From IMG/VR virus record IMGVR_UViG_3300033074_000580, positions 1-64,000 of that record: a stretch of DNA of 64,000 nucleotides; one strand, written 5' to 3'. Both the position numbers and the translations under genes were made by a program. The first letter of the stretch is position 1. Every line of letters begins with the position of its first letter. Below the pieces are notes generated by a model that saw nothing but the letters and a program-made list of their open reading frames with translations, had not been told where the DNA came from and made no database searches. Shown piece by piece: positions 588 to 61,697 of this stretch. Source of the stretch: a virus. Taxonomy: Duplodnaviria > Heunggongvirae > Uroviricota > Caudoviricetes.

Positions 588-2153
588 TTAAAAATCTAAT
601 TTAACTGAAATAACTTGGGTTCCAGATTTTGTCAATGGAGAAGCCAATTTACCGACAACTAAAGTTTCTTTGTTTGAATTTAACAATGCAACTTCGGTAA
701 TTTTAATGTTACCACTTGTATAAGTTGGATTTTGAGATGTTTCAAATTTTCCTGTTGGTAAATTTGCTTTAAAAATCATCTCTTCTATTTTACTTTCTCT
801 AACCACACTAACGCTACTTCCCGTTAAACCACTTATTTTTCTTTCGTCCCCAAAAGATGATAAAGTTGATGTGTAGGTTGTTGATGCTGCCGCGTATTTT
901 GTTTGATTTATAGTAAATGTGAAACCTGTTTTAAGATTATCAATGTTATTATTTAAATCAGTATTATATGATGTTTTATTTATTTTCCACGCAGTAGATG
1001 ATGGTAATTGACCATTGTCCACTAATTGGTGTAGAATATAAAATTGACTTGCAGTATAACCACTATTTAAATGTTTGAATTCCCCACTACTAAATTTAAC
1101 AGTCACGTTTTCATCATTTGTAGAACCTGTAACTTTACTAAAATACATACATGGTAATGTTTCTGTAGAGCCACTTAACATGTAAGTCACCCAAAGAGTT
1201 TTACCCGATGTTAACGCAGTAATTGGGTCAGCACTAGCTGCAATTACGTCTACCTTTGGTTTAGGTAGTGTGTGTAATCTATTTGAACCTCCGTCTAACG
1301 CTGCAACAATTTCTTCATCATCAAACACAATTGTTTTTTGATTATAAAATATCTTACCAACTCTCTTGTTTGAATAATCAACCAAATCTTTATATTCTAA
1401 AATTGATTTTGAATTGTAATTTGAAACGATATTTTTTGATGTTCCTGTTGACATATAGAATGTAGCACCCGTAGTTGCACCACTCAATCTATGATATAAT
1501 AGTGTTGGTAAACTAACATTAAAATATTCAACGTCAGTTTTATTTGAAGGGTTATTAGTAGCATCGGTTGTTATTCCTGTCCACGTACTAATATAGTCGT
1601 CGTATTTAAAAAATCCTTCAGGGTCATTTAATGGTGAACCATTTTCAGAATAATGTAATATTGCAATTGCTTTTTGTTCCTCAGGTGAAATTGTGACTTG
1701 TGCACCTGTGGTATCATATATTGTCGTTCCTGTGTTATATGTTTGACCTGATGATGTTGTGTAACCTAAATAATTTTTAATACCAATATATTTGTTGCTT
1801 GTATATCCTGAAACTGAACCACTTACACCAATCGGTAATTTTTCCCATACACTATCTAATGTCCAATTGCCATTTGATTCTATAACATCTCTACATGTTA
1901 ATTGTCTAGATTCTTCTACTGGAATACCATATGTAGTTGTCCCACTTGTATACCAAATTGGGTATTTAACATTTGTATTTTTATCTAATGGAGAAAATAC
2001 ATTTTGTGTGGTTCCGGTTAAGTTATAGTTATATTCAGAATCACCGACAGCAAAATAACTTACAACAAAATTACCTTTTGCTATTGCATTTCTACCAGTA
2101 TCTGTAAGTCTCGCCGCGACTGTTGCTGAATAATTTGTGTTTAAGAAACTCAT
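588..2153 (-). CDS. Baseplate/tail-fibre attachment protein (tail-collar, DUF3751-like N- and C-terminal segments)
   Basis: N-terminal LTDTGRNAIAKG..YFAVGD and C-terminal ITEVALLNSNKETLVVGKLASP resemble tail-collar motifs; lies next to baseplate genes. Confidence 0.6.
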   Translation of the reverse strand: MSFLNTNYSATVAARLTDTGRNAIAKGNFVVSYFAVGDSEYNYNLTGTTQNVFSPLDKNTNVKYPIWYTSGTTTYGIPVEESRQLTCRDVIESNGNWTLDSVWEKLPIGVSGSVSGYTSNKYIGIKNYLGYTTSSGQTYNTGTTIYDTTGAQVTISPEEQKAIAILHYSENGSPLNDPEGFFKYDDYISTWTGITTDATNNPSNKTDVEYFNVSLPTLLYHRLSGATTGATFYMSTGTSKNIVSNYNSKSILEYKDLVDYSNKRVGKIFYNQKTIVFDDEEIVAALDGGSNRLHTLPKPKVDVIAASADPITALTSGKTLWVTYMLSGSTETLPCMYFSKVTGSTNDENVTVKFSSGEFKHLNSGYTASQFYILHQLVDNGQLPSSTAWKINKTSYNTDLNNNIDNLKTGFTFTINQTKYAAASTTYTSTLSSFGDERKISGLTGSSVSVVRESKIEEMIFKANLPTGKFETSQNPTYTSGNIKITEVALLNSNKETLVVGKLASPLTKSGTQVISVKLDF

Positions 2154-2187
2154 ATTTTATAAATATTATTTTAATTTTTAATTATAA

Positions 2188-4593
2188 TCAAATTACATTA
2201 CAATGAAAATTATCGGTATCGTATCCAACACCAACCGCAATTTGTACACCATATCTTGGTGTTTTATAGTTATATTTTGACCTATTGAAAACATTGTTTT
2301 CAACTAAATTACCTCCAGTCCATAAAGTGGATGAAGGAATGAATTGTTCAACCAATTTAGTCCAATATGGTGTCATTTTTTGAACGAATTCATTTACAGA
2401 AACAAAATTGTATGGTGTATATCCAGTTTCCGTACCACTTATGTTAGTAATGTATTGATTATAAATTTCTTCTAAATAGATGTAATTTTTCTTGTACTTA
2501 ATAACATTTGTGTTTGTAATTACTTGACTTAAAGCGGTGTCTAAAAATTCAGCAAAACTATAATCATTTTGTGGTTCTAATTCACCGAATGTTAAATCCA
2601 AATCTCTTGATTTTCTATAAATGTCGTATTCAATTCCTCTTGATGGGGATAGATAAACATTTAAATTTTTTCTATTTAAAATTAGTTTTGATTCATTATC
2701 ATTACTTACAACCGATGTTTTATTATTATCAATATGTGATTCTAATTTAAAACCGTAATCTAATCCAGGCAAGTTTCTAAAATAATTAAAATAATCTTCA
2801 CCGTATGTATAAGGTTTAGGTTTTGTTTTAATTGTTTTTGTTCTACCCGTTAAAACTGATAATTCATTATCAATTATATTAGATGACCTATGGTCTAATG
2901 TTAAATCATACCAACCCGCACCTTTTTGGAAAAAGATATCTGACGATACATTAGTTGTTTTTCTTGGATAACCATTTTCATCTATTGGATATTCATCTCT
3001 CACTAATGTTGTCGTTCCTGTAGTTACTCCTGTTAAATAACTTGAAAATGTTCCACTACTTAAGGTATAACCTGTTATTTCTACTTGAGTTTTTGTACCT
3101 TGAATTAAATCATATAAGTCACTTTCAATATCCAAACTTTGTGGTATTTCAGTAACTTTATAAACGTACTCATCAATTTTAATTAAAGGTTCAGGTGCAC
3201 CTAAAAACTTTAAGAAGAATTGAATTGCAGAACGTGTTCCTTTTGATTTATATAAATGTGAAAGGTTAGTTAATATTCTTCTATAAAACTCGTATTCAGC
3301 CTCAATTAAAGTTTTACCGACAGGTATTCCCAAATATTGGGCTTCTTGTCTTGTGTATAATGTTTCTTCTAAAGATTTTTCGTCAAATAGATTTACAGTT
3401 GATAATCCTAATGTATTTGATAAGTTTTTTAATAATACGTCCGGTACATTGTTTATACCGTCATAACTAACATTTCTCATAAAAGCAATGTTATCTATGT
3501 ATTTTTTTACTTTATCAAAACTTTGTCCGTATAATTGGAAAATAGATTCCGCTCTTTTTTCTTCAGTATCAAATTCAAATAATTGTGGTGCCGATAAAAA
3601 TCTAACGATTAAGTTTGATTTGTAATCGTCAATCTCATCACCCAATCCACTTAACGTACTGATATAGTCATTGTAGTTAATACCTACAATTTGTAAGTTC
3701 CAATTATCTTTTGATATTGGCCAAGTAACGGAGACATCAACAATATCGGTAGATGTTTCATCAAAACTATCTCTCGGTACTTTAAACGTTGCAGTATACT
3801 TCGGATTAGATTCTCTATTTAAAAGAGATTTTTCCAAATCATCCAAATTATTGAAAAACTCTTCCGTTATCGAATCATTTGGTCTAATTAAAAAACTTGT
3901 AGTTGTACCGGTTGAACCGCTAAATAAATCACCATTAACTTTTAATTTAATATCTCCGTTAATGTCGGGTTCTGTATAGTTTATTATGTTATATGTATTA
4001 CCACTAAAATCTATACTATATTTCGTATATGAGGAATAAAAATTTCTAACAGTATTGTCTGTTGTGGGTAACACATTACTTAATGGTTGTTCCAATACAA
4101 TATCAAAAGGATTGAATATTATATTTTGTGGAACATAAAATTCAGTAGTATTTGTTGTTGTACTATATGTCGAATTAAACGCAGTATAGTCAGTTATTTT
4201 ATATGAAGAATTTTCATCTATAAAAATTGCGGCGGGGAATTTACTGATGATTTTCCCAATTGAAACTGATAATCTACTTTTTAAAGAACCGAATAAGGAT
4301 TTACTTGCATCATCAATTTTACCCTTAAATGAAATTTTTTCTTTTTTAACATTACCGTATTGTGTTGTTGGTGCTTCTTCCTCTTCTTTTAGAGTATCTA
4401 AAGTAAGATAATCTGAAAATGGACTAGTTTTAAAATCTTTACTATCTTTTTCAGGAATGACCTTATCAACCGCAAAACTGGTGTTAGTTAATTGACTGGT
4501 TCCGTCGGTTATTTGTCTACCGACTAAACTATCACTAAATGTTTCCGCACCACTTGCAGCTTGACTTGGTATTTTATACTTTACTACAGCCAT
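2188..4593 (-). CDS. Baseplate wedge protein with P2 gpI/T4 gp7-like domain
   Basis: VPDVLLKNLSNTLG...YRRILTNLSHLYKSKGTRSAIQFFLKFLG matches the Tail_P2_I 'KGT' signature. Confidence 0.7.
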   Translation of the reverse strand: MAVVKYKIPSQAASGAETFSDSLVGRQITDGTSQLTNTSFAVDKVIPEKDSKDFKTSPFSDYLTLDTLKEEEEAPTTQYGNVKKEKISFKGKIDDASKSLFGSLKSRLSVSIGKIISKFPAAIFIDENSSYKITDYTAFNSTYSTTTNTTEFYVPQNIIFNPFDIVLEQPLSNVLPTTDNTVRNFYSSYTKYSIDFSGNTYNIINYTEPDINGDIKLKVNGDLFSGSTGTTTSFLIRPNDSITEEFFNNLDDLEKSLLNRESNPKYTATFKVPRDSFDETSTDIVDVSVTWPISKDNWNLQIVGINYNDYISTLSGLGDEIDDYKSNLIVRFLSAPQLFEFDTEEKRAESIFQLYGQSFDKVKKYIDNIAFMRNVSYDGINNVPDVLLKNLSNTLGLSTVNLFDEKSLEETLYTRQEAQYLGIPVGKTLIEAEYEFYRRILTNLSHLYKSKGTRSAIQFFLKFLGAPEPLIKIDEYVYKVTEIPQSLDIESDLYDLIQGTKTQVEITGYTLSSGTFSSYLTGVTTGTTTLVRDEYPIDENGYPRKTTNVSSDIFFQKGAGWYDLTLDHRSSNIIDNELSVLTGRTKTIKTKPKPYTYGEDYFNYFRNLPGLDYGFKLESHIDNNKTSVVSNDNESKLILNRKNLNVYLSPSRGIEYDIYRKSRDLDLTFGELEPQNDYSFAEFLDTALSQVITNTNVIKYKKNYIYLEEIYNQYITNISGTETGYTPYNFVSVNEFVQKMTPYWTKLVEQFIPSSTLWTGGNLVENNVFNRSKYNYKTPRYGVQIAVGVGYDTDNFHCNVI

Positions 4594-5519: not shown

Positions 5520-5542
5520 GCTTTTTTATTATAAATATAATT

Positions 5543-6118
5543 TTATTGTTTTTTCACGTTAAAATACCCATTACCGTAAACACTTAATTCACCCATATTA
5601 TCAATTTCCCCCAATCTTAAGTTTAATTCCATAACCCCCAATTTACCCCTTTCAACAAAAATGTCAGAGTAAACTCTTGGTTGTTCGATAAACCCTAAAA
5701 AATGTTCATTTCTGGTTAACATTTTATTTATCACATATTCTGTTGCAAAATCAGAATCATTACCGATTGTTGAACCGGATGCAGTTAAATAAGATGGTGT
5801 TTTACCTGTAATTTGAGTATATCCCGTATCGTAATCTTCATACGATAATCCATCAATAGTGTACCCTGTATAATTTACTGTAACTCCACTAATAGTTTTG
5901 GTAGTTGCGGTAATTCCCGAATAAGAATCTGAACCATATAATTTTTTCTCACTTAATCTACTGGACCCTATGGCCATGAAGCTAAATGTTTTAGTTCCTG
6001 TAATACCTTCCTTATATTCTAAATCATTTAAATATGATTGAGTTTTACCTGTAATATCTGTATAAGGTATTGTAAATTCTAAATCTCCAAAATATGTGGC
6101 ACCTGAATATGTGGGCAT
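5543..6118 (-). CDS. Hypothetical virion protein, Thr/Gly-rich
   Basis: 191 aa with 8 [ST]GxT motifs; structural module. Confidence 0.55.
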   Translation of the reverse strand: MPTYSGATYFGDLEFTIPYTDITGKTQSYLNDLEYKEGITGTKTFSFMAIGSSRLSEKKLYGSDSYSGITATTKTISGVTVNYTGYTIDGLSYEDYDTGYTQITGKTPSYLTASGSTIGNDSDFATEYVINKMLTRNEHFLGFIEQPRVYSDIFVERGKLGVMELNLRLGEIDNMGELSVYGNGYFNVKKQ

Positions 6119-7000: not shown

Positions 7001-9679
7001 TTAGATTTTTTGTAGACTTGCGGTAACTACCGTAAATGGTCCAGTTGTTGATGCGGTTACGGTCCAACTTGTCACGTTATATGTTCCAGGTGCTAAGTTG
7101 AAGTCTATGAAATTAGTTCCTGTTTGTAATGTTGTACTATATGTTCCAACACCAGGTATCACTATAGACGTTGAACCTTTATCTCCAGTTACAACTTGAG
7201 AAGTTAATCTTATGGTTACGGTTGCTCCCACAATAGTTATTGTCGTTGCTGTCACAGTACTACTTGTCGATGAAGTACTAACTGATACCGAACTAGGACT
7301 GAATGATGCAGTTGCCGGTGGTACTGGTACCTCAGTAACTCCACTATTTGTTACACAACCATTTGCATCTGTTACCTCAAGACAATAACCATATGTTGTT
7401 ATTCCCGAAACATTGAATGTTGCACCCGCCTCTGTTACATTTGTCCAAGTGTTTACTAATGTTCCACCACAAGTTGTATATGGTGAACTTGTATCGGCAT
7501 ATAATCTATATGTCTTAGGCCATACACCTCCCGATGAACTTAATTGAATAACTCCATCTGTTAAATTTCCTGCCCATGTTGGGTCTGTAATTCTTGTTAC
7601 GCTTGCGGATTGTGCTGTTGGTTGGGTAATTGTTTGTCCATATGATGCAATACATCCTTGACTATCTTTTACATAAACAGTATAACTACCCGCAGTTAAA
7701 CTACTAAATGTTTTAGGGAACGCATAATATGTACTATTGTCTATTGAAACTGTATAAGCCCCACTATTACCTCCACTTGGATTAGATGTAGCAATTGAAC
7801 CATTTGAACCTCCGTTACAACTTACATTAGTCACACTAATTGTAGCATTAGGCGCCGTTTTAGTCATATCAATTGGTAATGTTCCCGATTCACAACCTGA
7901 ACCATCTCTACCTTGTACTGTGTAACTAATTGCACCTAAACCACTAAATGTACCACTTGATTGCCAAGCTCCCCATGAACCCGAACTATATATTCTATAT
8001 TGATATCCAGTACCTGAACCACCAGTTGCAGTTACGGTAATTGAACCATTTGAACCATTATAACATGTGGTATAAATTGCATTTGTACTAATGCTAACCG
8101 CAGATGGTTCTGTTACCGTTACACTATAATATTGCTCACATGTTGTAGAACTTGAATCTTTCACATAAACCCTATATGTTCCGGCAGATAATCCACCATA
8201 TGTTCTATCTCCCGAAATCGTTTGATACGCATATAATGTTGAGCTACCATCACTATTTGTTAGTTTTGTAGCATATGGTCCACCGATACCACCTGAAATT
8301 GTCGAATAACTAAGAGATATACTACCATTACTACCTCCGTTACATGTTGGTTGTGATGATGATGTACCAATATACGGAGCACTTCTTGCTAAACTACCCA
8401 CATAAACTGATGAAACTGTTCCCGTTCTGTTACTATTTCTTATATAACCGGTCCATGGTCCGCCAGATAAACTACTAAACGTGGCACTTGTTTGCCAATT
8501 GACGTTATCTTTCGAATATTCATACGAAGCTCCATTACCTCCACTACCGCTTAATGTGAATGATGCGTCATTTAAATTATAACAACTTTGTAACGAATAT
8601 GTTGAAACCGATACTGTCAACGCAGGTAATGTTGGTGTGACAGTTGGAGTCACCGTGTGTGTTGGTGTTATACTTGGGGTAATAGTTGGTGTAATTGTTG
8701 GTGTAACAGTTTTTGTTGGCGTAATTGTTGGAGTAATACTTGGAGTAATACTTGGTGTAACGGTTACTGTTGGAGTAATTGTTGGTGTAATAGATGATGT
8801 AACAGTTGGTGTAACTGTTTTTGTTGGTGTGATAGTAGGTGTAATTGTAGACGTTACCGTTGGCGTAATTGTAGGTGTTACAGTTACTGTTGGGGTTGGT
8901 GTTGGTGTTAAAATAGTGACACTAATACCAAAGCTACAGTTAATAGTCTGTGTTGGGGTAACTGTAACTGTTGGAGTTACTGTATGTGTAGGTGTAACCG
9001 TATTTGTTGGCGTAATTGTAGGTGTTACAGTTACTGTTGGGGTTACTGTTACCGTAGGTGTGATAGTTGGGGTAACTGTGTGTGTAGGTGTAACCGTATT
9101 TGTTGGCGTAATTGTGTGTGTTGGTGTTATTGTAACTGTTGGTGTGATAGTTGGTGTGATAGTATTTGTCGGTGTAATTGTTACTGTAGGTGTTGGTGTA
9201 GGTGTAATAATAGTTACACTAATACCGAAGCTACAATTGATTGTTTGAGTAGGTGTCACCGTTACTGTAGGTGTTACCGTTACTGTAGGAGTAACTGTGT
9301 TTGTTGGTGTAACAGTTGGCGTCACAGTAATTGTTGGCGTAATTGTGGCTGTAGGTGTAATAGTTGGGGTAATGGTTGGTGTTACTGTTATAGTAGGTGT
9401 TGGTGTAGGTGTTCTTGATGTAAGAAGAATTGTATATGGTATATTAAGACCATTTACCTTATTTACCACAATAATACTTGTAGCACCATCAGGTATAATA
9501 ATTGGAACACCAGTTTCTGAATTATTTACTATAGTTAAATCATGAAATGATAAATCTTGAGCATATAAGTTATTATCATATCTTATGGCAAGATTAGATT
9601 CACTAACACTATCGTGGTAGATATCATAAGGTCCCGGTGAGGTTCCTGATTGTAATTCTATGTAAAAATATCTTGCCAT
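7001..9679 (-). CDS. Fibre/adhesin-like protein: mucin-like TPT stalk plus SprB-type repeats
   Basis: About 260 aa of (TPT[IVNH]) repeats followed by several CNGGSNGSI...GG...Y...F..L.AG.Y.V.VKD..GC units typical of the SprB repeat. Confidence 0.75.
8628..9412. repeat. Degenerate coding tandem repeat (Thr-Pro-Thr-X units) with two Cys cassettes
   Basis: Repeated gttggtgt/aactgt/aattgt units with synonymous variation. Confidence 0.9.
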
Positions 9680-9688
9680 TTATTATAA

Positions 9689-10438
9689 TTACTGATTTAT
9701 TAAATTGTAATCGTTTTCAATATTTAAAACATAATCAACTTGTGATTCACCCATAAAAACTTTATCGGTGTACGCAAATAGTTTATTTTCACCATCATCA
9801 AATATTGAAGATTTATATATATTTGTTTGATTATTTCCGTTTATTTTACTAACATTATTTGTATCGATATCATATAAAAATGTTTCAAAATTATCTTCGA
9901 ACATACCTGTAAATAATATCTTATTTTGACCATACATTGGTATTATTCTAACCACATTTTGTGTGTATGGTGAACAATCAAAAATTGTATTACCATTTTT
10001 TAAAATATCATCACTTTTAACATTTAAAATGTATTTTCCATCTTTAATAAATCCTGTTCGTACTCTATCCCACATCATCAAATTTGTTACTGTTTTAGTT
10101 ACCATATCAAAATCTCCTTGAACTAAAAAATATTTTAGTGGCTCGTGGTCTTCCATTTTATGTGCACCAATAACATAACTTATTTTATTATCATTTATAA
10201 ACCCATTACACTCAGCAATTACTTCATAATTTTCATTTTCATGTGTTATTATATTTGGTGTGTTAATTGTTGTTTTTGTATAATTTGAATCTAAAAGACA
10301 TAATTTCCAATAATCTTCAAATACATCATCCTCACCAAATTTAAAACTAAATCTTTGGTTTGTAAATTCACTAACAATAATATTGATTTCATTATTATGT
10401 TTAAAAATATATGGTTGATGTAAATTACTTATTTTCAT
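9689..10438 (-). CDS. Hypothetical protein between the two TPT fibre genes
   Basis: 249 aa, N/I/K/D-rich globular-looking ORF with no recognisable motif. Confidence 0.6.
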   Translation of the reverse strand: MKISNLHQPYIFKHNNEINIIVSEFTNQRFSFKFGEDDVFEDYWKLCLLDSNYTKTTINTPNIITHENENYEVIAECNGFINDNKISYVIGAHKMEDHEPLKYFLVQGDFDMVTKTVTNLMMWDRVRTGFIKDGKYILNVKSDDILKNGNTIFDCSPYTQNVVRIIPMYGQNKILFTGMFEDNFETFLYDIDTNNVSKINGNNQTNIYKSSIFDDGENKLFAYTDKVFMGESQVDYVLNIENDYNLINQ

Positions 10439-10442
10439 TATT

Positions 10443-13106
10443 TTATGTATTATAAGGTGCTACTGTAAATTTATTACCTTCATATGTGTTTAATGCGGTT
10501 GGTAAATCTGTCAACACGTTTGATGGGTAGTGTCTAATAGGTCCTCCGTTTACTGTTGTCCATTGGTCAATAATATAAAATTGTCTTGTTCTACAATTCT
10601 GAACAATAATTCTCATATATCCATTATAACCATGTATAGGTGGTGTAAATGTACTTGGAAGACCTGTTAAAGTTTTTGTTGTTGGGTTATATACACCGTT
10701 AGGGTAATTATAATTATTATATGCGGTTTCATACATAAACCATTTCCATTCTGTTGGTGATGCTGTACCATAACAATAATTTGCCACAGGTAATGCTGTT
10801 GGTGTCACCGTTGGTGTTGGTGTTGGTGGTATTGTCGGACAACTTATTGTGAATTGATATGAATCACCCAATGGTAAGCTTGGATTTTCAGGTCCAACCT
10901 CAACTCTCATTTCATAAGTACTACCAGTCAAGTATGTGAAAGTAAAGCTACCCGTAGTTCCGGTTGTATTAAGGTCTCCAACTCCTCCCCATGGTCCAAC
11001 ATACGTATCATCATATCCAACCCAACCACTTGTTTGCGCCAAACCACCATTAACATATAAATTAAATCTATTTGGTCTATCAAATGCTGCATAAGTTATT
11101 GTGATTGTATTACTACTAACATAATAACCATTAGAAAAATCTAAACAATGTGTAAATGATGTGTACGTACTATTATTGTAGTTATTTGTAACCGTATCAT
11201 AACATCTATTGTCACAAGTTGTTCCACTAGGGTAGAATTCTCTAGCAATAGGTACAAATGATGTATCAGGTGTCGGTGTTACTGTTGGTGTAATAGTTGG
11301 TGTAATAGTTGGTGTAATAGTATTTGTCGGTGTAATAGTAGGAGTTACAGTTACCGTTGGAGTTACTGTGGTGGTCGGTGTTACCGTTGTAGTAGGTGTA
11401 ACTGTTGGTGTTACAGTTAATGTAGGTGTTGGTGTTATTGTAGTTGTAGGTGTTGGTGTTGGCGTAATAATAGTCACACTAATACCAAACGCACAATTGA
11501 CAGTTTGTGTAATAGTTGGTGTAATCGTGTTTGTTGGTGTAATAGTAGGTGTTACAGTATTTGTTGGCGTAATAGTAACTGTCGGTGTTATAGTTGGCGT
11601 TATACTAGGTGTTGGCGTTGGTGTAGGAGTTACCACAGTAACGCTGATACCGAACGAACAATTTATAGTTTGAGTTGGTGTTACTGTGACTGTTGGCGTA
11701 ACCGTATTTGTTACGGTCGGTGTAATAGTTGGTGTAATAGTTGGAGTAACCGTATTTGTTGGCGTAATAGTCGGAGTTGCGGTAATAGTTGGTGTTACCG
11801 TATTTGTTGGAGTTACTGTGTTTGTTGGTGTAATAGTTGGTGTAATAGTTGGGGTAACCGTATTTGTTGGTGTCGGTGTAGGTGTCAATATTGTAACACT
11901 AATACCGAAGCTACAGTTAATTGTTTGAGTAACTGTAGGTGTAATAGTATTTGTTGGGGTAATAGTTGGTGTAACAGTTAATGTTGGAGTAACAGTTGGT
12001 GTTGCAGTAATGGTAGGTGTAATAGTAATTGTAGGTGTCGGTGTAGGGGTTACCACGGTAACGCTGATACCAAAATTACAGTTAATAGTTTGTGTAGGTG
12101 TAACTGTAACTGTATTTGTTGGAGTAACAGTTACTGTAGGTGTAATAGTTGGAGTTACGGTAATTGTAGGTGTTGGAGTTGGTGTCGCGATGTTCACATC
12201 TATACCAAACACACAATTTATAGTTTTAGTAGGTGTAACCGTAATGGTTGGTGTTACTGTGTTTGTTGGGGTTACAGAAGGCGTAACTGTTTGTGTCGGC
12301 GTTATCGACGGAGTTACAGTAATTGTAGGTGTAACAGTTGGTGTAACCGTATTTGTTGGTGTAATTGTAATAGTTGGAGTTATCGTAGTTGTTGGAGTAA
12401 TTGTTACCGTAGGTGTAATAGTAGGTGTAATTGTAGGGGTAACAGTTGGTGTGATTGTAACTGTAGGTGTAATAGTTGGTGTAACATATAACTCAACACA
12501 ATCAACAACAATATTTTTTGTTATCTTTTCTTTAACCCAAGGTGCATCTAATGTAATAGATGCGGTTCTTATACCATTTGTTGTAAAATTTCTACTTACT
12601 GAACTATTGGCCGTAAATCCTGTTACTGTAACACCATCGTCCCATTTAAGTGTATAATTAACAGATGTATTTGATAACATCTTTAATTTACCAAAGTTTG
12701 TAGAATTTACAATTGTAATAGTATATCCCGAAGATGAACATACACCAGAATATGAGAAATTTGCGGTAACTTTATCTTGAGATATGTTACCATCAAAATC
12801 AACCATTGGTCCATACTCATCTACTTTAGAATCAATATAAATTGGTAATTGATAATCTCCGTAAATTGAATTTATATCACTACTATTCCATCTGTTTGAT
12901 GTTGGTGTACCCCACACATAATATCCTTCCGAAACAGTACCTCCTGAGACATTATAAACTTTGGTACCTGTTGTTAATGTTGTAGGTGTAATTCCACTCC
13001 AATATATAATATTACCATCGATATCATACCAAGCCTGTTCGGTCAATGAGACCAACTTAACTTGTACGATATTTTCCCTCTTAATGGTATGTCTTATTCT
13101 TTTCAC
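10443..13106 (-). CDS. Fibre-like protein: PKD/Ig-like N-terminal part, long mucin-like TPT stalk, Cys-containing C-terminal head
   Basis: GTG start with TATTTATA 5 nt upstream; YTLKWDDG...RTASITL PKD-like segment; about 400 aa TPT repeats with five INCxFGI[SD]V cassettes. Confidence 0.7.
11270..12485. repeat. Degenerate coding tandem repeat (TPT units) with five Cys cassettes
   Basis: Same repeat family as 8628-9412. Confidence 0.9.
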
Positions 13107-13140: not shown

Positions 13141-14628
13141 CTAATATGTTCCACAAGATGATGCCGGTTGACAAATATATCCACCTCCCGTTGTGTGATA
13201 TAATCTTCTATAATTTATTCCATTGTAAATCCATAAATTTTGACCTTGTCCATATGGTGCAAATGATGTTGAAGTATATGTCGTTGCATTACAGAATGTG
13301 GCCGTTGAACTATTTAATTCAACAGATATCTGAGCGGCACCCGACCAACTACCATATGATGGTGTTGTTCCATCAGGAATATATTGGAAATTTACAGTTA
13401 ATGAAACATTTGGTGGGTTTGGACACGTTAAATCACTACTTAGAGCTAAATTACCACCATTACCCACACTATCATATACAGAAATAGCATACGTGTTACC
13501 AACATAACTATCTAAACCTGTATACGTATGTGGTAATGAATAATGTGCCGAATCAAAACCTGCAGGACCTGAAGTTATAACACAATAATAACCTGTACCT
13601 GAACCACCAGTTGCCCCCGAAACAGTTATTGTAGCTCCCGTTGGATTATATCCAACACAAGTAGATGACAAACTAAAGTTAATAGGTGGATATGAAATAC
13701 CATTATTGGTTGGTGTTATGGTTGGTGTTATTGTAGGTGTAGGTGTTATTGTGTGAGTTGGTGTAATAGTTGGCGTTATACTTGGTGTTGGTGTTGGTAC
13801 GAAAATTGAACCTCCTCCTCTTTCATAAAATTTAATTGGGTCATTACTTTCACCCACTCTATTACCCGTTGTACCACTAAAATTATATATTTGATAAGAA
13901 TAATCACTTCTATCAATTACTACCTTAAAATACATGTCAGTTGTATCGACAACCTCTCTTGATGTTGAAAATACATTATTACAAAAATCGGTTATACTTC
14001 CATCTTCAGCATTATAAAATTTTGCCGTCATGAAAAATGTGTCTCCACTTAATGGTGTACCAGATAATACACTCTCATCTTGGAACCAAAATAGATACAT
14101 GTTCTCTTTGTTTCTATAATTTGACCCCATAAACACAGGGCAATGGATATTTTCATTTAAATTATTTCCACTATAAAAATATTTTTCACCTAACGGTAAA
14201 CTAAGATTTTTTGCAAAAACTAATTTTCTATTTATTCTTGTCGGCGCCTCAACAACTCCATCGGTAATCGGAGTTTTAAAAAATTCCAATCTAAAGAAAC
14301 TTTTGGTTGCCGCCTTTAACATTTTAGCATTTTCTTTTGTACTAATACCAACAGCATTATAATCGGGTACATATGTACTACCAGATAAAAAATAAAAATA
14401 AAACCAAATATCGGTTTGACTAAGATTTGTACCACCAACTGATGTGGTATATGGTTTATGTATAAATCTTACCGTTTCATAATTTTCAATAGGATTGATT
14501 ATTGAAGATAGAACTTCATCTTCAAATTGAACCATACTTTCTTGCCAACCCAAATTATTTTGGATGTCCTGTTCTTGATTTAAAATTATATTTAAATTTT
14601 CGTTAGATTTTAAAAATTCCATTAACAA
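13141..14628 (-). CDS. Virion protein with short TPT linker and SprB-like/Cys-rich C-terminal domains
   Basis: Globular N-terminal half, [10 protein letters not shown] linker, STCVG...[14 protein letters not shown]...YAISVYDSVG module. Confidence 0.6.
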   Translation of the reverse strand: MLMEFLKSNENLNIILNQEQDIQNNLGWQESMVQFEDEVLSSIINPIENYETVRFIHKPYTTSVGGTNLSQTDIWFYFYFLSGSTYVPDYNAVGISTKENAKMLKAATKSFFRLEFFKTPITDGVVEAPTRINRKLVFAKNLSLPLGEKYFYSGNNLNENIHCPVFMGSNYRNKENMYLFWFQDESVLSGTPLSGDTFFMTAKFYNAEDGSITDFCNNVFSTSREVVDTTDMYFKVVIDRSDYSYQIYNFSGTTGNRVGESNDPIKFYERGGGSIFVPTPTPSITPTITPTHTITPTPTITPTITPTNNGISYPPINFSLSSTCVGYNPTGATITVSGATGGSGTGYYCVITSGPAGFDSAHYSLPHTYTGLDSYVGNTYAISVYDSVGNGGNLALSSDLTCPNPPNVSLTVNFQYIPDGTTPSYGSWSGAAQISVELNSSTATFCNATTYTSTSFAPYGQGQNLWIYNGINYRRLYHTTGGGYICQPASSCGTY

Positions 14629-16397
14629 TCGAAATTAAAGCCGTTTAGTCCATCCTGTTTATTATTATATTGTTGTTCATTTCTTAAATAGAAATTGATA
14701 TCTGTTCTAACATAGTGCATGTTATTTGAAAATGGAAAATTCGTACCATTACCATCCACATCCACATAACCATGGTCATATAAATCTCTCCATCTCCATA
14801 TTTTTTCAACTGAGTCATATGTTACATTTTCAGGTAAATTATAAACATCATCGGTTTGTGAACTTTCAACATATGGTGATAATTGTCTTAATTTAATTCT
14901 TTGGTGTGGTTGATAATATAATCCTGTTTTATTATTAACACTAGCACCAGAATAATATGTTGAATCGTCTTGATTGTGGTCAAAGTGTGTTGTAGGTGTT
15001 GTGAATTTATGGAAAGATTCACTAACAACTCTTTCTTTGAGTTCCAATGGGTTATATTCAACAAAAGCACCAATTAAAGTTGTACCTGTTGGGATGGTTG
15101 ATCCACTTAAAAAAGTAAATCCCGTATAACCGGCTTGCCATGTTCTTCCTGTAAATGATGTAACGTTCGACAATGCTGTTTCGTTGTGGGTTGTTCCACT
15201 AAAATGTTCGTCAATCCATGAATTATGAAAATTAAATTTATAACCAACTTTTGGTGGGTAATCAAAATAACCTTCACCATTTCTAAAAATGGTTGTCACA
15301 TAAACTTCAGTTGGTGTGTATCCTAAGTTATTTGTTAATCCACTTAGAACGAAAGGTTCCTTAAAGTCAAATAAAACTGACTCAGGTCTATTTCTTTCAA
15401 CTAATATGTCATTATCACCTGAAAAATTTTCAAATACTAATTTTCTTTCGTTTTCCCATATTGGTGATTCAAATCCAACTTTATCTAAAATATAACCACT
15501 TTCATCTGTTAACGTTTTATGTAGATGAACATAATATGAAGATGAAGTTCCGGCTAAATTGTTTATATCAATAATTCTTTTGCCCGTCATTAAAGTCATT
15601 GTATTAAATGGGGTACCACTAACAGAACTTTTTGCAATGTTTATCACATATTTGTCTGAGTTGTAAAATTCATTACCGACACTATTGATATAAAATGTGT
15701 TACCTGTTAAAGTTGAACCAGATAGTTTTACATATTCACCTGCATTCATACCATGTTCGATGGGACTAGTTAATTCATAATAACTGTCACCACTATATGT
15801 TAATCTAAATGGTATTCCATCTTCAGCTTTAAAATGAATTATATTTCTACCTTCAGTTTTTGTTGCACCAGATAATGTATAAATCATTGAATATTGTGTA
15901 TTCGCAGAATATACATAACTTAAATAAACGTTCCAATTTTGATATGGTGCTTGTATTGGTGTTACTATAGTGTGACCTGTTGGTCCAACAAGTTGATATG
16001 TTGGCGTGAATTGAGATAAAGTTGTACCTGAATTTATTACATTGTATTCTCTTACTACATCTTGTCTCATGAAAGCAAATTCATCATATGGTATAAAACC
16101 AGTATGATTATTATCCGTTCCATCTCCAACCAAATATAATCTATCTTTTAGATATGTATATTCCGTATTACCACTATACATGTTACGGAATATCATTTTC
16201 ATTTTACCAAAAATCTTATATGTGGCACTATTGTTTCTTTCTTTATAAAAAAGTTCATCTAAATCTAAAACAATATCTTTATCACCTATACGCATAAGTG
16301 ATTCTGATGTTTCGAAATTAACTCTAACATCAACATCCTCAGAATCCGCCTTTTTGTATCTCTTACTTGGTAAGAGTATTTTTTTATTTTCTTCCAT
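14622..16397 (-). CDS. Hypothetical baseplate/virion protein
   Basis: 591 aa, coupled to neighbours, 12 [ST]GxT motifs. Confidence 0.6.
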   Translation of the reverse strand: MEENKKILLPSKRYKKADSEDVDVRVNFETSESLMRIGDKDIVLDLDELFYKERNNSATYKIFGKMKMIFRNMYSGNTEYTYLKDRLYLVGDGTDNNHTGFIPYDEFAFMRQDVVREYNVINSGTTLSQFTPTYQLVGPTGHTIVTPIQAPYQNWNVYLSYVYSANTQYSMIYTLSGATKTEGRNIIHFKAEDGIPFRLTYSGDSYYELTSPIEHGMNAGEYVKLSGSTLTGNTFYINSVGNEFYNSDKYVINIAKSSVSGTPFNTMTLMTGKRIIDINNLAGTSSSYYVHLHKTLTDESGYILDKVGFESPIWENERKLVFENFSGDNDILVERNRPESVLFDFKEPFVLSGLTNNLGYTPTEVYVTTIFRNGEGYFDYPPKVGYKFNFHNSWIDEHFSGTTHNETALSNVTSFTGRTWQAGYTGFTFLSGSTIPTGTTLIGAFVEYNPLELKERVVSESFHKFTTPTTHFDHNQDDSTYYSGASVNNKTGLYYQPHQRIKLRQLSPYVESSQTDDVYNLPENVTYDSVEKIWRWRDLYDHGYVDVDGNGTNFPFSNNMHYVRTDINFYLRNEQQYNNKQDGLNGFNFDC

Positions 16398-19300
16398 TAT
16401 TCAGATGGTGGGAACGCCCCTTTTGGTCCGTAATATTTTATCATGGTGTCTAATGCTGTTTTATCGGGTCTTAAACCAAAATAGAATAAGAATGGTGTTG
16501 ATAATACTTGTTTGTTACCACTATAATTTAATTGTGTTTCAAATAAGAAAGTTTCTCTATAATCGTGAACATACCTATCTGTTTGTTCTTTCCATGTTTT
16601 ATCAACAACAACATATGTAACACCACTTAAAGGTGATTTTGTTGTTCCTGATGTTACATGTAACCATATATCACCTTCAACATAACTTATTGCTCCATTT
16701 GGTGATGTACTAGGTGCGGATGAACTTATATTTTCAAATCTTTCCAACATGTCTGTGGTATTACCTGTAAACGAATACTGCGGATGTGTAATTGTTATTG
16801 GTTTTAGTAAATACTCTTCCTCACCATCAGCAAACAAATAATTTGTAGTAGTATTTGTTGCACCACTAATTGAAAATAAGCGTTGTAATTTCATAGATGC
16901 AATTGAGGTTCTATCCCATTTTTGTCTATCAGAATTTCCACCGTATGGTCCAAAACCTATACCTCCTTTATTCCATAAAAAGAATGGAACTTTTTGTGTG
17001 TAATCGCCCAATCTATAATTTAAACATTGTCTAATAAATGCACCATTTAAATCTAATTTTAAATCAATTGGTACGGGACTATAACTATTCCCTGACTTAA
17101 AATAACTTGCAAAATATGAGTCTTCTGGATCCATCAATTCACCGTTATATATGAAGTAATGTGGACTATCTAAATCGAATGCTTCAATTCCCGCTTCACA
17201 GTTAATTGACATCAATTGTGTAATATCACCATCGAATATTTTTACATTATCACCTAAACCTGTTCCTGTGAAGAAATCCCCAACATCAAATTTAGCATCA
17301 CTAATGTCCATTCGATAATTGATTGCATATTCAACAACATTAGCAGGGTCTTGATATGATGTTGTGTTAATATCTCTAATAACTGAACATGTTGGGTCAA
17401 TTCTTGGGTCTTGACAAATTTCATATAAGAACTCATCTCTCACCCCAACGTCATAGAATGTTGTTGGGTGTAGAATTTCTTTGTATGTTCCCATATTTTG
17501 ACCAATAAAACCACTTGTTGGGTTATATGGTGTTGCTCTATAATAAAATTCTTGGTCTAAAACATTAAAGAAAACTAATTCTCTTGGGAATTTAGATGCT
17601 CGTTGACTTAAATCTAAAACTGTTGGGTCATCCCATTTAATTCTTTTATCAAATTTAAAGAAATATAAAACCCCGTTTAACCAGTTATCTATAAATGAGT
17701 AGTTTACAACTCCTCCACAGAAAAACACACCAACTCTTTTTCTTTTATACCACTCTTTAATTACTGATTGATTTTTTGACACCCCTTCAATAACTGGCAC
17801 TATGGTTACAACACCATCTCTAATCTCAGTTAAACCTGATTTTGTTTTCTTTGAGAAAGTATTGTCTCCACCTTCCATATCGGCAACATTTGGTAATCTT
17901 CTTGTTGATGATGAACCAGCAATTGTTGCAACCAAAGTATAATTTGATGCAGGTGCGGTTGGGGTTGAGGTCTCAACATATGGGGTTCCAGTATAATACG
18001 GTTTACCTAATAAATGGTAAGGGTTTGTTGTTGAACCATAATTGTATGACACACGCTTTGAATATGTTGTCCATGATGGTCCATTTGGATTTCCAACATT
18101 TGATACGTCGTTAACATCTCCATATGTACCACTTGATGACCACAAATATGTATAAACACTTGTTTCATCGTAGAATTTGTCATATTTTGAACATCCTTGC
18201 TCAATTGTTAATTCGGTTGATGATGTGGTTTTTGATGCTGCCCTATCATAAACTCTAACAACAGCATATAAATCTTTAATACCTTCAATACCACCCGCAC
18301 TATAATCTTTTCCTGCATATTTTTCCCAATAAGAATAAGACATTTTAATTGCAGGTACGTTTGTATATGTTTCCGGTGAACCTGTATTATATTCTCTATA
18401 TGTATTTGGGGTAAATTGTGTTACTCTTTCATAAACCTCTGTTTGATAATTTCCTCCTCCGCAATCTATTGATTGTAATGTAGCATAACCACTGGTTGTT
18501 TGTCCACTTTGTATTGTAATATCTTGTGTTCTATATGTGTAGTTACAAGGATTTCTTATTAAAAGTGTGATTACAATATTTTCAGTTGCGGTAATTGGTC
18601 CACCAGATAAATCAACATATTGTGCGCTAACTTGACTTCCATTATCTGTTATTTTTACGGAATTACCAGTATTTGTTGGTGTCGTAACTGTAACAATTTG
18701 GAAATAGGAGTTTAATTGTGTATCAACATACGACGAATTAAATTCAGTATACATATCATTGAATGTGTCTGTTGAAACATCACTACCAACTAATGGATAA
18801 ATTCCACCTATATATCTTTTTTGTGATGATATGCCCGGTGTTGTATATGTATGTAATAATGGAATATCAGATTCAAGAATTCCTGAAGTTTCAACGTCTT
18901 TTGCAGACTGACCATTAAATAATTCAGTTAAAAATGTACTACCCGTTGTGGTACTTGAGTTTAAATAATTTGGTGTTTGTCCAGATAAATAAACTAAATA
19001 AATTGACCCATCATATGGGACTACCTTTGTTTTTATTTCGGCACTTCTATAATAAAGATTTAAATTACCCAAACCCGAACTTGGTGCAACACCATCAACG
19101 TCAGTAGAACATTCTTCACAATCCGGATATGTTGTTAATGGTAAACTTGTTTGACCACCTTCAGCAATTCTCATTGCAAATTCCCTCAATCCAACACCTA
19201 AATCGAATATTGGGTGACCATTTGCAAATGAAAAACCCATTGCGGTTTTACCAAGGTCCCACATTATACTACCTATTGTTTCATATACCCATATTTGAAT

Positions 19301-22820: not shown

Positions 22821-22821
22821 C

Positions 22822-23274
22822 TTAAATGTTTAATATTATAAAGTCCGAAGATGAAAATGCTCCGTTATTAACCGTATATTCTATTTTAACTACAGCGGTA
22901 TGTGGTTTAGTTGAATTGTCAGAAACTCTAAATAATCTTTCATCTTCATCTTGATTAAATGTTCTAACAGTATCTGGGTCATCTTCTGCAGACATCACTT
23001 CCAATTTAGTAATATCTAAATTTGGTATATATTTTTTTACCGATTCCCTAATTTCTTCCTCGATTAAATTGAAGGTTACCATATCATTTTGGTCAAAAAT
23101 AAATTGATATAGTCTAGTACCAAAATCGGGTAGAAAATAACGACTACCTCTTTTTGTCAATAAAAGGTGTATTAAATTGGCTCTAACCTCTCTTTCAGGG
23201 TCTACAGTCATTTTTAAATAATCACCTCCTAAACTCTCTCTAAATGGGAAATCTATTCCATATTTTACCGCCAT
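22822..23274 (-). CDS. Baseplate wedge subunit gp25-like (sheath initiator)
   Basis: GIDFPF...NLIHLLLTKRGSRYFLPDFGTRL GPW/gp25 signature. Confidence 0.9.
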   Translation of the reverse strand: MAVKYGIDFPFRESLGGDYLKMTVDPEREVRANLIHLLLTKRGSRYFLPDFGTRLYQFIFDQNDMVTFNLIEEEIRESVKKYIPNLDITKLEVMSAEDDPDTVRTFNQDEDERLFRVSDNSTKPHTAVVKIEYTVNNGAFSSSDFIILNI

Positions 23275-47023: not shown

Positions 47024-47512
47024 TTAGAATACTTGGATACAACGGTCCATTCTCAAATTACAAGTAATTGTTGAGATTTCGTCTCTTGAGTAATCAAGTT
47101 CACCGAAGTCTAAGTTTGTGATAAATGTTCCTTGAAGAATCCATTTTTCAACCACAACTCCAGTTGGGTCTAACATTTCAAGTTCAATGTCTTTTTTATA
47201 ACCAGCAGCATATCCCATTCTACCTGTTACTGATTCTGCATGTAAACGGAACCATTCCATAAGAGCTTGAGAAGCCGAAGGACCGATTGGGTCTCTAAAG
47301 GTTACTCTAAGTTCTTCCCATGTGAAACGTCCAGCAACATAAGTTGAAGTATTCAAGAATTGAATTTCTGTTGAGTTAATTTTTGCTTTTGGTCTAGCTG
47401 CGGAACTTACAAACCATTCATTGATACCCAATGATGATGGGAAGCGAAGAATAAATCGATTCTGTCTTTTTGGTTCGTAAGGAACCGGCATTTTCATTAG
47501 TAAATCTGCCAT
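47024..47512 (-). CDS. Tail tube protein (T4 gp19-like)
   Basis: EPKRQNRFIL, AGRFTWE....TFRD, YKKDI..EMLDPTG.VVEKW.L.G.F....DFGELDY. Confidence 0.92.
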   Translation of the reverse strand: MADLLMKMPVPYEPKRQNRFILRFPSSLGINEWFVSSAARPKAKINSTEIQFLNTSTYVAGRFTWEELRVTFRDPIGPSASQALMEWFRLHAESVTGRMGYAAGYKKDIELEMLDPTGVVVEKWILQGTFITNLDFGELDYSRDEISTITCNLRMDRCIQVF

Positions 47513-50375: not shown

Positions 50376-50415
50376 AAAGATAGTTAATTATCCTTTTTTA
50401 TCTTTATTTATCTTT
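50376..50415. promoter_or_regulatory. Candidate operator: TATCYTT repeats at 10 bp spacing
   Basis: TATCCTT at 50389, TATCTTT at 50399 and 50409, inverted AAAGATA at 50376, directly before the RHH gene. Confidence 0.45.
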
Positions 50416-50419
50416 TACT

Positions 50420-51810: not shown

Positions 51811-51811
51811 A

Positions 51812-52324
51812 TTAAACTCCTCTAAATTGGTTATCTTGAACAGGTGAACATAATATTGACCTGTAATATGGTTTGTATCCAAACATATTATGTTTATTGT
51901 CCGACGTTACTCTACCGTCATTAGTTACTTGATAAAATCTTGTTCTTGTTTCAGATTCAGGGTAACCAATGTAATCACCGTATCTAATATCTATTTTTAA
52001 TTCTTCTAAATGTTTTATATAAACAGAAAGAGACATATTACCCGGCTCCAAATACCTCATCAATCCACCATTATATGATGAATTTTTAGGTTCTTCAATT
52101 TTAACCAACGCATTAAATTCAACAGGAGGGAAAAATTTAGTTTGGTCAACTCCAACTTCAGCATATACCGAATCGGTATCAGTTTTTTCTCTATCTACAC
52201 GATAAAGAACCAATTTCATGTTTAAATCCCCATGTAGATATTCTTGTCCTATTTGAATATTTAAATCAAAATCGTCCTGAGATAAGAATTTACCTAATCT
52301 GGTAATCGGTAGTTTATTGTTCAT
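51812..52324 (-). CDS. Neck/head-closure protein (gp14-like)
   Basis: VLYRVD...T..DSVY.E, I..GDYI, FYQV; context next to the tail terminator. Confidence 0.6.
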   Translation of the reverse strand: MNNKLPITRLGKFLSQDDFDLNIQIGQEYLHGDLNMKLVLYRVDREKTDTDSVYAEVGVDQTKFFPPVEFNALVKIEEPKNSSYNGGLMRYLEPGNMSLSVYIKHLEELKIDIRYGDYIGYPESETRTRFYQVTNDGRVTSDNKHNMFGYKPYYRSILCSPVQDNQFRGV

Positions 52325-52372
52325 ATTCTAATAAATAGTTTAATGTTACATTCTAATTATTTATATTTTAAT

Positions 52373-59701: not shown

Positions 59702-59713
59702 ATATCTTAAATA

Positions 59714-60517: not shown

Positions 60518-60530
60518 TTAGATAAATAGT

Positions 60531-61697
60531 TTAATAAATTAGTATGTCGTTATCTTCTGTAAATAGATATTCACCATTTTCAGTTGTTATACCTACTGAC
60601 GTAAATGCCGTTATTTCTTGACTACAAGGTGACTGACATTCGTTTATATTATAATTTGGATAAATTGTAGTTTTATAATGATGTTTAACGTGTACAAAAT
60701 CTAGAGGTTCTTCAAAATACTTAACCTGTAATAATGAGAATTCAGTATTACCCGTGTGTAAAGTATTATAACCAGTAGTTCCCCCACCCCAAGATTGTAT
60801 TATTTGATTTTCAGACTCTCTTAAAGACGGTATTACTTCTTCCCAATTTTTTAATTTATATATTGGTTTACCGTTTAGATAAATTGTTAATGTCCCTAAT
60901 CTATTTAATCTATTATTCCACCATTTTTTGTTTAACTCTTCGATAAACTCGTTTGTAATTGTTCCCCCACTCATCCAATCATAAATGTCGTTGCTTATGG
61001 TATAACCTGTCATTATTTGGGTTGATGTGGAACCGGTATCGTTTGGCGTATAGGAAACTGGATGTGGACCTAAAATTAAATCATTCCACCCACCTTCGTT
61101 TTCTATTTCACAATTATTATATTCATTATTTCTTGTAAATGTAATTGTAACATTAAAATCGGACGACGTACCACCGCTACATAATACTGGTGTTTGTCCT
61201 GATAATGTATAATATGATTCGGTATATCCCGATATGGTATCACAAACCCCCGAATAGTGGTATTTTTCCCATTTTATTCTACCGTCATTTGTAAATGAAA
61301 ATGATAGATTATTGTCCGCGTAGTATCTTTCATTGGTTTCCCCACTAATACCCCAATAATAGAATGTTGTTCCTCCAGACCAATTTATGCTTTCTTTATT
61401 AAAAACAAAATCTAATGTCCACCCCTTTTCTGTACGTCTTCTAACCGTAAAATCACACGTATCTCCCGTATAGTTATTGTTAATTTCATAAACCCACGGT
61501 TTAACATCATCTAATATATTTGTTAAACATGAAGAGTCCACAGTTAGTCCCGAATATAATATCTCAGTATTAAAATCCAACACCTCGGAATTGTAATCGT
61601 CGGTTATTTTGGACAGTTCAAAATCATATAATTCAGAATAATCCAATTTTAAATCCAATTTACTACCGTAAAACTTTAAAATATTTTGGTTTGCCAT
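60531..61697 (-). CDS. Virion protein with LamG/concanavalin-like fold
   Basis: GWTLDFVF, LGTLTIYLNG, YFEEPL; likely start MANQ at 61697 with TATTTATA upstream; 11 [ST]GxT motifs. Confidence 0.55.
   Translation of the reverse strand: MANQNILKFYGSKLDLKLDYSELYDFELSKITDDYNSEVLDFNTEILYSGLTVDSSCLTNILDDVKPWVYEINNNYTGDTCDFTVRRRTEKGWTLDFVFNKESINWSGGTTFYYWGISGETNERYYADNNLSFSFTNDGRIKWEKYHYSGVCDTISGYTESYYTLSGQTPVLCSGGTSSDFNVTITFTRNNEYNNCEIENEGGWNDLILGPHPVSYTPNDTGSTSTQIMTGYTISNDIYDWMSGGTITNEFIEELNKKWWNNRLNRLGTLTIYLNGKPIYKLKNWEEVIPSLRESENQIIQSWGGGTTGYNTLHTGNTEFSLLQVKYFEEPLDFVHVKHHYKTTIYPNYNINECQSPCSQEITAFTSVGITTENGEYLFTEDNDILIY

Follow-up and report, generated by a model that had tools for sequence, protein, structure and literature searches.

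The first 64 kb of the viral record IMGVR_UViG_3300033074_000580 (positions 1 to 64,000, here called the window) encode a set of tail proteins in which the short sequence [ST]-G-x-T recurs far more often than composition predicts. This [ST]GxT excess is a selected, protein-level short motif. Comparisons among related genomes indicate that ongoing selection maintains its extended form, the short linear motif hydrophobic-[ST]-G-{not P}-T, on exposed tail parts in a deep clade of freshwater jumbo myophages. As its likeliest function we propose, tentatively and at a little short of an even chance, a putative O-glycosylation-type acceptor site, which would be used by a phage-encoded system in the host cytoplasm late in infection. 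The record is a single contig (323,865 bp, 32% G+C) that CheckV rates as 97% complete. By its predicted genes the source virus is a contractile-tailed jumbo myophage, with PHROG matches in the window to tail sheath, tube, baseplate hub, and gp6-like and gp25-like wedge proteins. An identity with the published "moraphages" is ruled out, as this genome has neither DnaK nor glutamine synthetase, and the DegT gene gave no hint of the phage host.

The initial annotation had counted the motif by hand in five proteins, and these counts proved exact on recount (14 in 521 amino acids (aa), 8 in 191 aa, 12 in 591 aa, 11 in 395 aa and 8 in the sheath). Only the open reading frame (ORF) given as 60531-61697 needed revision: its count of 11 is correct, but its true end lies at 61718 and its length is 395 aa. 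Three further proteins are enriched, at 2188-4593 (8 sites), 16397-20932 (8 sites) and 13141-14628 (5 sites, marginal). Together the eight carriers hold 74 sites, against 8.1 expected from shuffling whole proteins (z = 24) and 12.9 from shuffling within blocks of 10 residues (z = 18). The control for S/T/G composition, which had been set beforehand as a refuting test, thus leaves the excess standing, and both composition and local S/T/G-rich patches are excluded as its cause. The rest of the genome shows no such excess (102 sites versus 114 expected).

The specificity of the motif is equally marked. In an unbiased ranking of all a-b-x-c patterns, with two T-P-T repeat proteins set aside, SG.T (54 versus 8.5 expected, z = 15.6) and TG.T (43 versus 9.5, z = 10.9) take the first two ranks, and all other patterns follow far behind. 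The reversed motif and the variants [ST]xGT, G[ST]xT, [ST][ANDS]xT, [NDAG]GxT and [ST]Gx[VIL] occur in the carriers at about their expected frequency. Ser at position 4 ([ST]GxS) reaches 1.6 times expectation and Val, Ile or Leu at this position 0.7 times. Asn and Asp are not enriched at position 1 (NG.T 1 versus 3.2 expected, DG.T 2 versus 2.6), which argues against a plain Asx/ST-turn, since such a turn would permit either residue there. The sites are likewise confined to the coding frame (74, compared with 0-1 in each of the other five), and the Ser codons at the motif are a mixture of AGT, AGC and TCN, so that both Ser codon families are used. A cause at the DNA level is ruled out on these grounds, in agreement with the earlier statement that the motif is not a DNA repeat.

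The consensus was derived from 410 sites pooled from 37 enriched proteins and reads phi-[ST]-G-{not P}-T, where phi is a hydrophobic residue. Position 1 is Ser in 201 and Thr in 209 of these sites. The residue at position -1 is hydrophobic in 58% of them against a background of 33% (p = 2e-24), Pro occupies x in two sites where about 17 are expected (p = 4e-6), and basic residues are scarcer in the surroundings. By analogy, the exclusion of Pro may be likened to the x-not-Pro rule of the N-x-S/T sequon.

The description of the motif as virion-wide proved too broad. It is concentrated in the gene cluster that follows the baseplate genes, in the insertion of the sheath and in a protein of lectin fold (Table 1). 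The 574 aa of the gp23-like capsid protein contain 2 sites, and none is present in the tube or the gp6-like protein. The motif-rich ORFs between 588 and 20932 lie on the same strand as the gp6-like and gp25-like genes and directly downstream of both. They have no family match, except for weak matches to one uncharacterised PHROG family, and are read from their synteny as probable peripheral baseplate or fibre proteins. In the sheath, all eight sites fall within residues 142-520, flanked on either side by the conserved termini, just as had been noted for the central insertion. Insertion domains of sheath proteins form the outer surface of the tail. The term "outward-facing" therefore applies by homology to the sheath insertion and by synteny alone to the other carriers, among which the 395-aa protein is only a putative virion protein.

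Table 1. Motif carriers, control proteins and glycosyltransferase genes discussed in the text. Site counts are observed numbers of [ST]GxT, with the expected number where available; GT, glycosyltransferase.
Feature	Coordinates	Strand	Matches and remarks	[ST]GxT sites
521-aa protein	588..2153	-	no PHROG or Pfam match; baseplate-downstream cluster	14 vs 1.17
801-aa protein	2188..4593	-	no family match	8 vs 0.78
191-aa protein	5543..6118	-	densest carrier, 4.2 sites per 100 aa	8
Two fibre-like T-P-T-[IV] repeat proteins around a 249-aa ORF	7001..13106 (7001-9679, 10443-13106)	-	mucin-like, 24-28% Thr	
495-aa protein	13141..14628	-	weak phrog_15511 match; marginal enrichment	5 vs 1.07
591-aa protein	14622..16397	-		12 vs 0.70
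1511-aa protein	16397..20932	-	directly downstream of gp6-like gene; moderate enrichment	8 vs 2.16
gp6-like and gp25-like baseplate wedge genes	20988..23274	-	PHROG matches; internal controls and synteny anchor	0
Tail tube	47024..47512	-	buried control	0
Tail sheath, 818 aa	47836..50292	-	phrog_23 tail sheath, 1.4e-63	8
395-aa protein	60531..61718	-	concanavalin/CBM40-like jelly roll	11 vs 0.64
407-aa GT-B-like protein	genome 64755-65978 (L001:755-1978)		late-region set; phrog_7162 glycosyltransferase, 1.6e-40	
354-aa Agt-like GT-B protein	genome 68752-69816		late-region set; remote AmGGT match	
260-aa GT2 protein	genome 69818-70600		late-region set; adjoins sigma-like gene and head module	
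Weak GT2 match	genome 118872-119564		late-region set	
Glycan locus L092	genome 218779-229859		GT4, GT1-like, three GT2-type, TOD1-like GT, DegT, epimerase/dehydratase, methyltransferase	
906-aa GT1-FkbM methyltransferase fusion			outside the late-region set and L092	

Shuffling within local blocks raises the expectation for the 521-aa protein to 1.85 sites, still far from the 14 seen. In the marginal 495-aa protein such shuffles reach 5-6 sites, that is, its own count. The carriers show no BLAST similarity to each other, and a shared duplicated domain was rejected as the source of the motif at this level of comparison. The motif is present in at least two unrelated folds. Relatives with solved structures were sought for three carrier proteins and none was found. 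For the 395-aa protein an AlphaFold (AF2) model was obtained with a predicted template modelling score (pTM) of 0.67, and a Foldseek search with it returned CBM40 and the receptor-binding domain of botulinum neurotoxin (BoNT) at E ~1e-6. In this single model the sites are placed at strand ends, strand starts and loops. Homologues of this lectin-fold protein (P0018, P0052, P0060 and others) come in a form of about 390 aa and another of 580-650 aa, and the C-terminal part of the long form stands alone on other contigs.

The maintenance of the motif was followed in a clade set of eight genomes, consisting of this phage and seven relatives retrieved whole (G006, G018, G010, G013, G015, G012 and G014). 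Co-occurrence in related phages, which had been suggested as a check, holds in all eight, at sheath identities down to 42%. The complete relative G006 (336 kb) shares 225 of 379 ORFs; seven of the eight carriers have counterparts there with 7-18 sites each, and SG.T and TG.T are again the top patterns. The G006 orthologue of the 521-aa protein (43% identity) has 18 sites against 1.5 expected. The best matches there to the 801-aa and 191-aa proteins are 1,895 aa (58% identity, 18 sites versus 4.9) and 394 aa long (48% identity, 8 sites versus 0.9), and the G012 counterpart of the 801-aa protein retains 12 sites versus 2.9 at 28% identity. For the 1511-aa protein the orthologue median is 9.5 sites, and the best match in G006, aligned over no more than 633 residues, contains a single one. 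The excess extends to six deeper relatives, in which the capsid is 54-63% and the sheath 42-47% identical, with a strong signal in G018, G010, G013 and G015 and a lesser one in G012 and G014.

Alignments of two carrier families show how the motif persists. Among 29 orthologues of the 591-aa protein the site count ranges from 5 to 18, with a median of 14 where 0.8 is expected. In 24 distinct aligned sequences the sites occupy 35 columns, a few of which are invariant and most of which are won or lost by single substitutions. For the 395-aa protein 629 homologues were found; 39 of them, aligned at 53-83% identity, have 3-14 sites each against 0.2-2.1 expected, and here position 1 alternates between Ser and Thr with the Gly and the final Thr retained. 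The final Thr of the motif is kept in 0.78 (591-aa family) and 0.77 (395-aa family) of the orthologues, a rate that other Thr residues do not reach (0.45, p = 0.002, and 0.53, p = 0.012). The x residue is freer than average in the 591-aa family (kept in 0.41 versus 0.64 for all residues), but not in the 395-aa family (0.64 versus 0.60). Orthologues of only 24-30% identity retain the density of the motif while individual sites turn over; the density is thus renewed by selection and not merely inherited.

The motif is specific to this clade. As outgroups, Microcystis phage Mel-JY01, Flavobacterium phage immuto and 400 kb of the 484-kb uncultured phage LR756508 were scanned genome-wide, and no protein with p < 5e-3 was found in any of the three. 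These motif-free genomes rule out a generic property of sheath or fibre proteins. Mel-JY01 has 40 sites where 40.2 are expected. The insertion of its sheath is homologous and can be aligned, but has no site at any of the motif positions, so the fold does not require the motif. Our literature searches returned no report of a [ST]GxT motif in phages.

A clade-specific structural idiom has to be weighed against these data. The motif would then be a favoured end or start of a beta strand, in which a hydroxyl-capped glycine turn or bulge is combined with a beta-branched Thr, and it would be kept for the folding, stability or solubility of beta-rich outer domains with no enzyme involved. We regard this as rather unlikely, though as an alternative to be taken seriously. 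It would agree with the hydrophobic -1 position, the shutting out of Pro and the depletion of charged residues at the pooled sites, with the strand-loop junctions that hold sites in the lectin-fold model, and with several sites that are invariant across orthologues. The missing avoidance in non-target proteins, and an enrichment whose strength differs among relatives that all keep the glycosyltransferases discussed below, would suit it as well. However, Asn and Asp, the usual equivalents of Ser and Thr in turns, are unused, and the final Thr is not replaced by Val, Ile or Leu. At variable sites in otherwise conserved positions the Gly changes to Ala, Ser or Asp, which means that a special Gly conformation is not obligatory, and in the single model the secondary-structure context of the sites appears not to be uniform. 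The Mel-JY01 sheath insertion does without the motif, the carriers comprise at least two unrelated folds without detectable similarity, and an idiom of this kind offers no reason why this clade alone should use it.

The O-glycosylation-type acceptor site is favoured by the requirement for a hydroxyl residue that excludes Asn and Asp, by the exclusion of Pro, and by the turnover of sites at a kept density. It is further supported by the unrelated folds, by the absence of the motif from the homologous outgroup domain, and by a set of glycosyltransferases (GTs) that is private at the level of the clade. Mucin-like T-P-T stalks in the same gene cluster are also counted for a glycosylation reading. 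As had been observed, the window contains no modifying enzyme. The rest of the genome, where a search for such genes had been recommended, contains at least 10 GT-like genes and sugar-nucleotide enzymes. Pfam GT2 matches above cut-off lie at genome positions 69944-70234, 222257-222664 and 228765-229073, and GT1 matches at 219640-219792 and 247227-247613. Other sugar genes are a DegT-family aminotransferase, a nucleoside diphosphate (NDP)-sugar epimerase/dehydratase and an FkbM-type methyltransferase.

Four late-region GTs, encoded within or close to the late/head module, are co-distributed with the motif: they occur in all eight genomes of the clade at 34-78% identity and in none of the three outgroups. 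Few genes of the clade are as well conserved as that of the 407-aa GT-B-like protein (78% identity in G006, 45-54% in deep relatives), which has at least 7,996 database homologues, the top 120 of which are all at least 79% identical; its Pfam match is only weak and below cut-off. In lineages further removed, too, the Agt-like and GT2 genes stand as a pair beside head genes in a conserved block. Among solved structures the 354-aa protein has a single relative, AmGGT (8XSG), which it matches remotely (E = 4e-7, about 236 residues). A homologue of AmGGT, the Actinobacillus enzyme ApAgt, acts in the cytoplasm to extend glucose already linked to protein; AmGGT itself refuses glycopeptides, so membership of the family does not establish the type of acceptor (PMC12159676).

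From these elements we infer not only a modification as such but also a possible course for it. A clade-specific late GT, with the 407-aa GT-B-like protein and the GT2 protein as priming candidates, would place the first sugar on the hydroxyl of the Ser or Thr at position 1. The small Gly would let the enzyme in, and the strictly kept Thr at position 4 would serve as a recognition element. The chain could then be lengthened by the adjacent 354-aa Agt-like GT-B protein, so that glycans would come to cover the distal tail and the surface of the sheath. A dedicated cytoplasmic O-glycosylation system in the full sense, with hydrophobic-[ST]-G-{not P}-T as its sequon, the late-module GTs as its enzymes and a coat on sheath surface, baseplate periphery and fibres throughout a large and abundant clade, is possible, if still somewhat doubtful. 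Its primer would be the 407-aa protein and/or the 260-aa GT2 protein and its extender the Agt-like enzyme, and sites would come and go in evolution, as in the glycan shield of animal viruses.

Several points weigh against a glycosylated tail. The hydrophobic -1 residue and the exclusion of Pro fit a structural motif at the edge of a beta strand equally well. The placement of sites at strand ends and loops in the predicted 395-aa model fits surface exposure without proving it. Avoidance of the motif in ordinary cytoplasmic proteins was looked for and not seen (49 sites versus 35 expected). Capsid (its gp23-like gene lies at about 79.7-81.4 kb, just beyond the window) and tube, which are glycosylated in mycobacteriophages, are both unmarked here. 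The association between motif and GTs is confined to one clade and is effectively one evolutionary event. All four GTs are kept in L098, L099, G012 and G014, where enrichment is only 2-4 fold, and a clean case of loss was sought without success, the motif-poorer subclade (P0085, P0120) still having the late-region GTs. Phage GTs act more often on DNA or on host surface glycans, and those of the late region flank a dUTPase/dCTP-deaminase-like gene. Viral ThyA homologues can make 5-hydroxy-dCMP as a handle for glycosylation, an activity that sequence does not settle (PMC13326640). The single ThyA-family gene here (genome 212242-213264, L094) matches the thymidylate synthase equivalog with 343.5 bits against a cut-off of 325. 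The model matches this gene in two or three stretches with an apparent insertion, and the gene lies about 5 kb from the glycan locus L092.

The glycan locus L092 is unlikely to encode the writer of the motif. Its DegT, TOD1-like and GT7C-like genes are lacking in G006, which keeps the motif, and homologues of its GT4-GT1-GT2 triad occur in both motif-free phages, Mel-JY01 and immuto. Of the outgroups, Mel-JY01 alone has a clear counterpart of the GT1-FkbM fusion. The conserved part of L092 comprises GT4, GT1-like and two GT2 genes, and its variable cassette consists of TOD1/MUCI70-like, GT7C-like, DegT and a 303-aa gene without assigned function. The absence of this cassette from the complete relative G006 suggests strain-variable sugars. 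The triad is syntenic at 36-49% identity in this genome (218779-222862), Mel-JY01 (84024-86972) and immuto (49128-52985), and by this comparison it is a widely conserved phage GT module, shared by one jumbo phage and by myophages of Microcystis and Flavobacterium. In a distant relative (L188:1092-9655), NeuB-like, CMP-sugar-synthetase-like and GT29 sialyltransferase-like genes and several methyltransferase genes stand directly upstream of the Agt-like/GT2 block. Their predicted functions point to a phage-made nonulosonic-acid glycan.

The selection signature of the motif, with its exposed tail parts, its turnover of sites and its many copies per protein, would be the same if it were recognised without being modified. 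The reader could be an assembly chaperone, a decoration protein, the phage's own lectin-fold protein or a component of the host surface, in the last case giving multivalent weak adhesion. The presence of a lectin-fold protein among the carriers and the position of carriers among fibre-like genes are in line with such recognition. Nevertheless we consider it improbable: no candidate reader was found in our analysis, four residues of which one is free give very little binding energy or specificity, the sheath surface is marked although it makes no contact with the host, and the co-distribution with the GTs is left unexplained. More improbable still is another covalent modification, such as phosphorylation, nucleotidylylation or acylation, by an enzyme of phage or host. 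The hydroxyl residues at positions 1 and 4 and the exclusion of Pro would suit any hydroxyl-directed enzyme. However, a search of the genome for the protein kinase domain PF00069 found no such alternative writer. Nor did any further candidate come to light, in a survey that did not go through the remaining enzyme classes systematically, whereas GT genes are numerous and linked to the clade.

To our knowledge, reports of glycosylated proteins in phage particles are limited to very few phages and define no acceptor sequence. The general O-glycosylation of Bacteroidota acts on D-[ST]-[AILVMT], is periplasmic and is encoded by the host. It shares with the proposed acceptor site a short motif of three to four residues of O-glycosylation type in many copies on surface proteins. 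The statement that the present motif differs from the Bacteroidota sequon is borne out by the eight carriers, in which D-[ST]-[AILVMT] is not enriched (16 versus 21.7 expected).

Mycobacteriophage virions are glycosylated, and it has been proposed that GTs encoded by these phages modify structural proteins in the cytoplasm ahead of lysis (Freeman et al. 2023, as cited in PMC12619734). Phage-encoded GTs are present here too, with matches to GT2, GT1 and phrog_7162. In the mycobacteriophages, however, glycans are placed at the C-termini of capsid and tail-tube subunits, with no short sequon cited, whereas our motif of four residues, a putative mark, is dispersed. The targets named there, capsid and tube, have two sites and none in this phage.

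Closer in form is the atypical sequon N-T-x-T of the chlorovirus PBCV-1, whose capsid protein Vp54 is glycosylated by a virus-encoded, host-independent system with many GTs and sugar methyltransferases (PMC9614988). Both motifs have four residues, a free third position and Thr at the fourth. In PBCV-1 the glycans are N-linked to Asn at four sites of one capsid protein of a eukaryotic virus, in contrast to a candidate Ser/Thr-Gly acceptor at dozens of sites on many tail proteins of a bacteriophage. NT.T is not among the top a-b-x-c patterns of the carriers.

The NGT/Agt enzymes of Actinobacillus are soluble and cytoplasmic and glycosylate adhesin-type proteins at a sequon in which x is not Pro, the GT4 enzyme Agt acting in elongation (PMC12159676). 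The present motif likewise shuts out Pro at x, and the 354-aa protein is a remote relative of the Agt/AmGGT family, which includes enzymes that refuse glycopeptides. N-x-[ST], the sequon of NGT, is not enriched in the carriers (66 versus 69.6 expected). Autotransporter heptosyltransferases of the Aah/TibC type, which are GT-B-type enzymes, hyperglycosylate many Ser residues on beta-rich adhesins in the cytoplasm (PMC4358343). These enzymes are GT9-like iron-binding dodecamers acting on beta-helix repeats, whereas the carriers described here are not repeats of one unit, and with the searches made no Aah/TibC-type domain was detected among the GTs of this genome.

If the motif is indeed an acceptor site, virion glycosylation would be predictable from sequence, and a short tag with soluble cytoplasmic enzymes would provide a new orthogonal O-glycosylation tool for glycoengineering. 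It would also account for the conserved late-module GT block in an abundant group of lake phages and raise the question of the purpose of a glycan-coated tail, which may be to shield it from proteases or grazers, to promote adhesion, or to evade recognition. Should the motif turn out to be structural, a clade-wide pattern of four residues that survives near-total sequence turnover in unrelated folds is still unusual, and it would help to mark exposed virion proteins in genomes that otherwise defy annotation.

The unmarked proteins of the window behave as had been reported. NrdA, NrdB, helicase, exonuclease, RecA-like protein, SSB, PolB and SNF2 together have 5 sites in 3,885 aa, and the tube, the gp6-like and gp25-like proteins and the 629-aa ORF at 44124-46013 have none. 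Orthologues of the gp6-like and gp25-like proteins (n = 78 and 73) have a median of 0 sites. The helicase (26252-27625), the exonuclease (28095-29114) and the RecA-like protein (29126-30106) each have one site that is kept in nearly all orthologues; these single sites are background, not targets. The initial annotation ascribes two of the five sites to Walker A. TPT is the commonest tripeptide of the window, and in the two T-P-T proteins [ST]GxT is not enriched (2 versus 6.2 and 7 versus 4.1 expected). Mucin-like linkers of the T-P-T type are often O-glycosylated in other systems.

Beyond the window, collagen-like tracts of the form (G-[ST]-S)n occur in three large proteins (genome 239445-242594, 276680-280894 and 282814-286185). 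In the first two, Ser, Thr and Gly together reach about 63%, yet there are 2 and 1 [ST]GxT sites where 12.0 and 18.2 are expected, because the third position of the triplet is always Ser and never Thr. The third has 4 sites against 9.3 expected. A head-module protein of about 460 aa, encoded two genes after a 643-aa head-module ORF, has 3-4 sites in three divergent lineages (75413-76804, L188:16860-18221 and L189:9255-10637; p = 0.015, 0.007 and 0.0006), and it may be the sole head-associated carrier of the motif.

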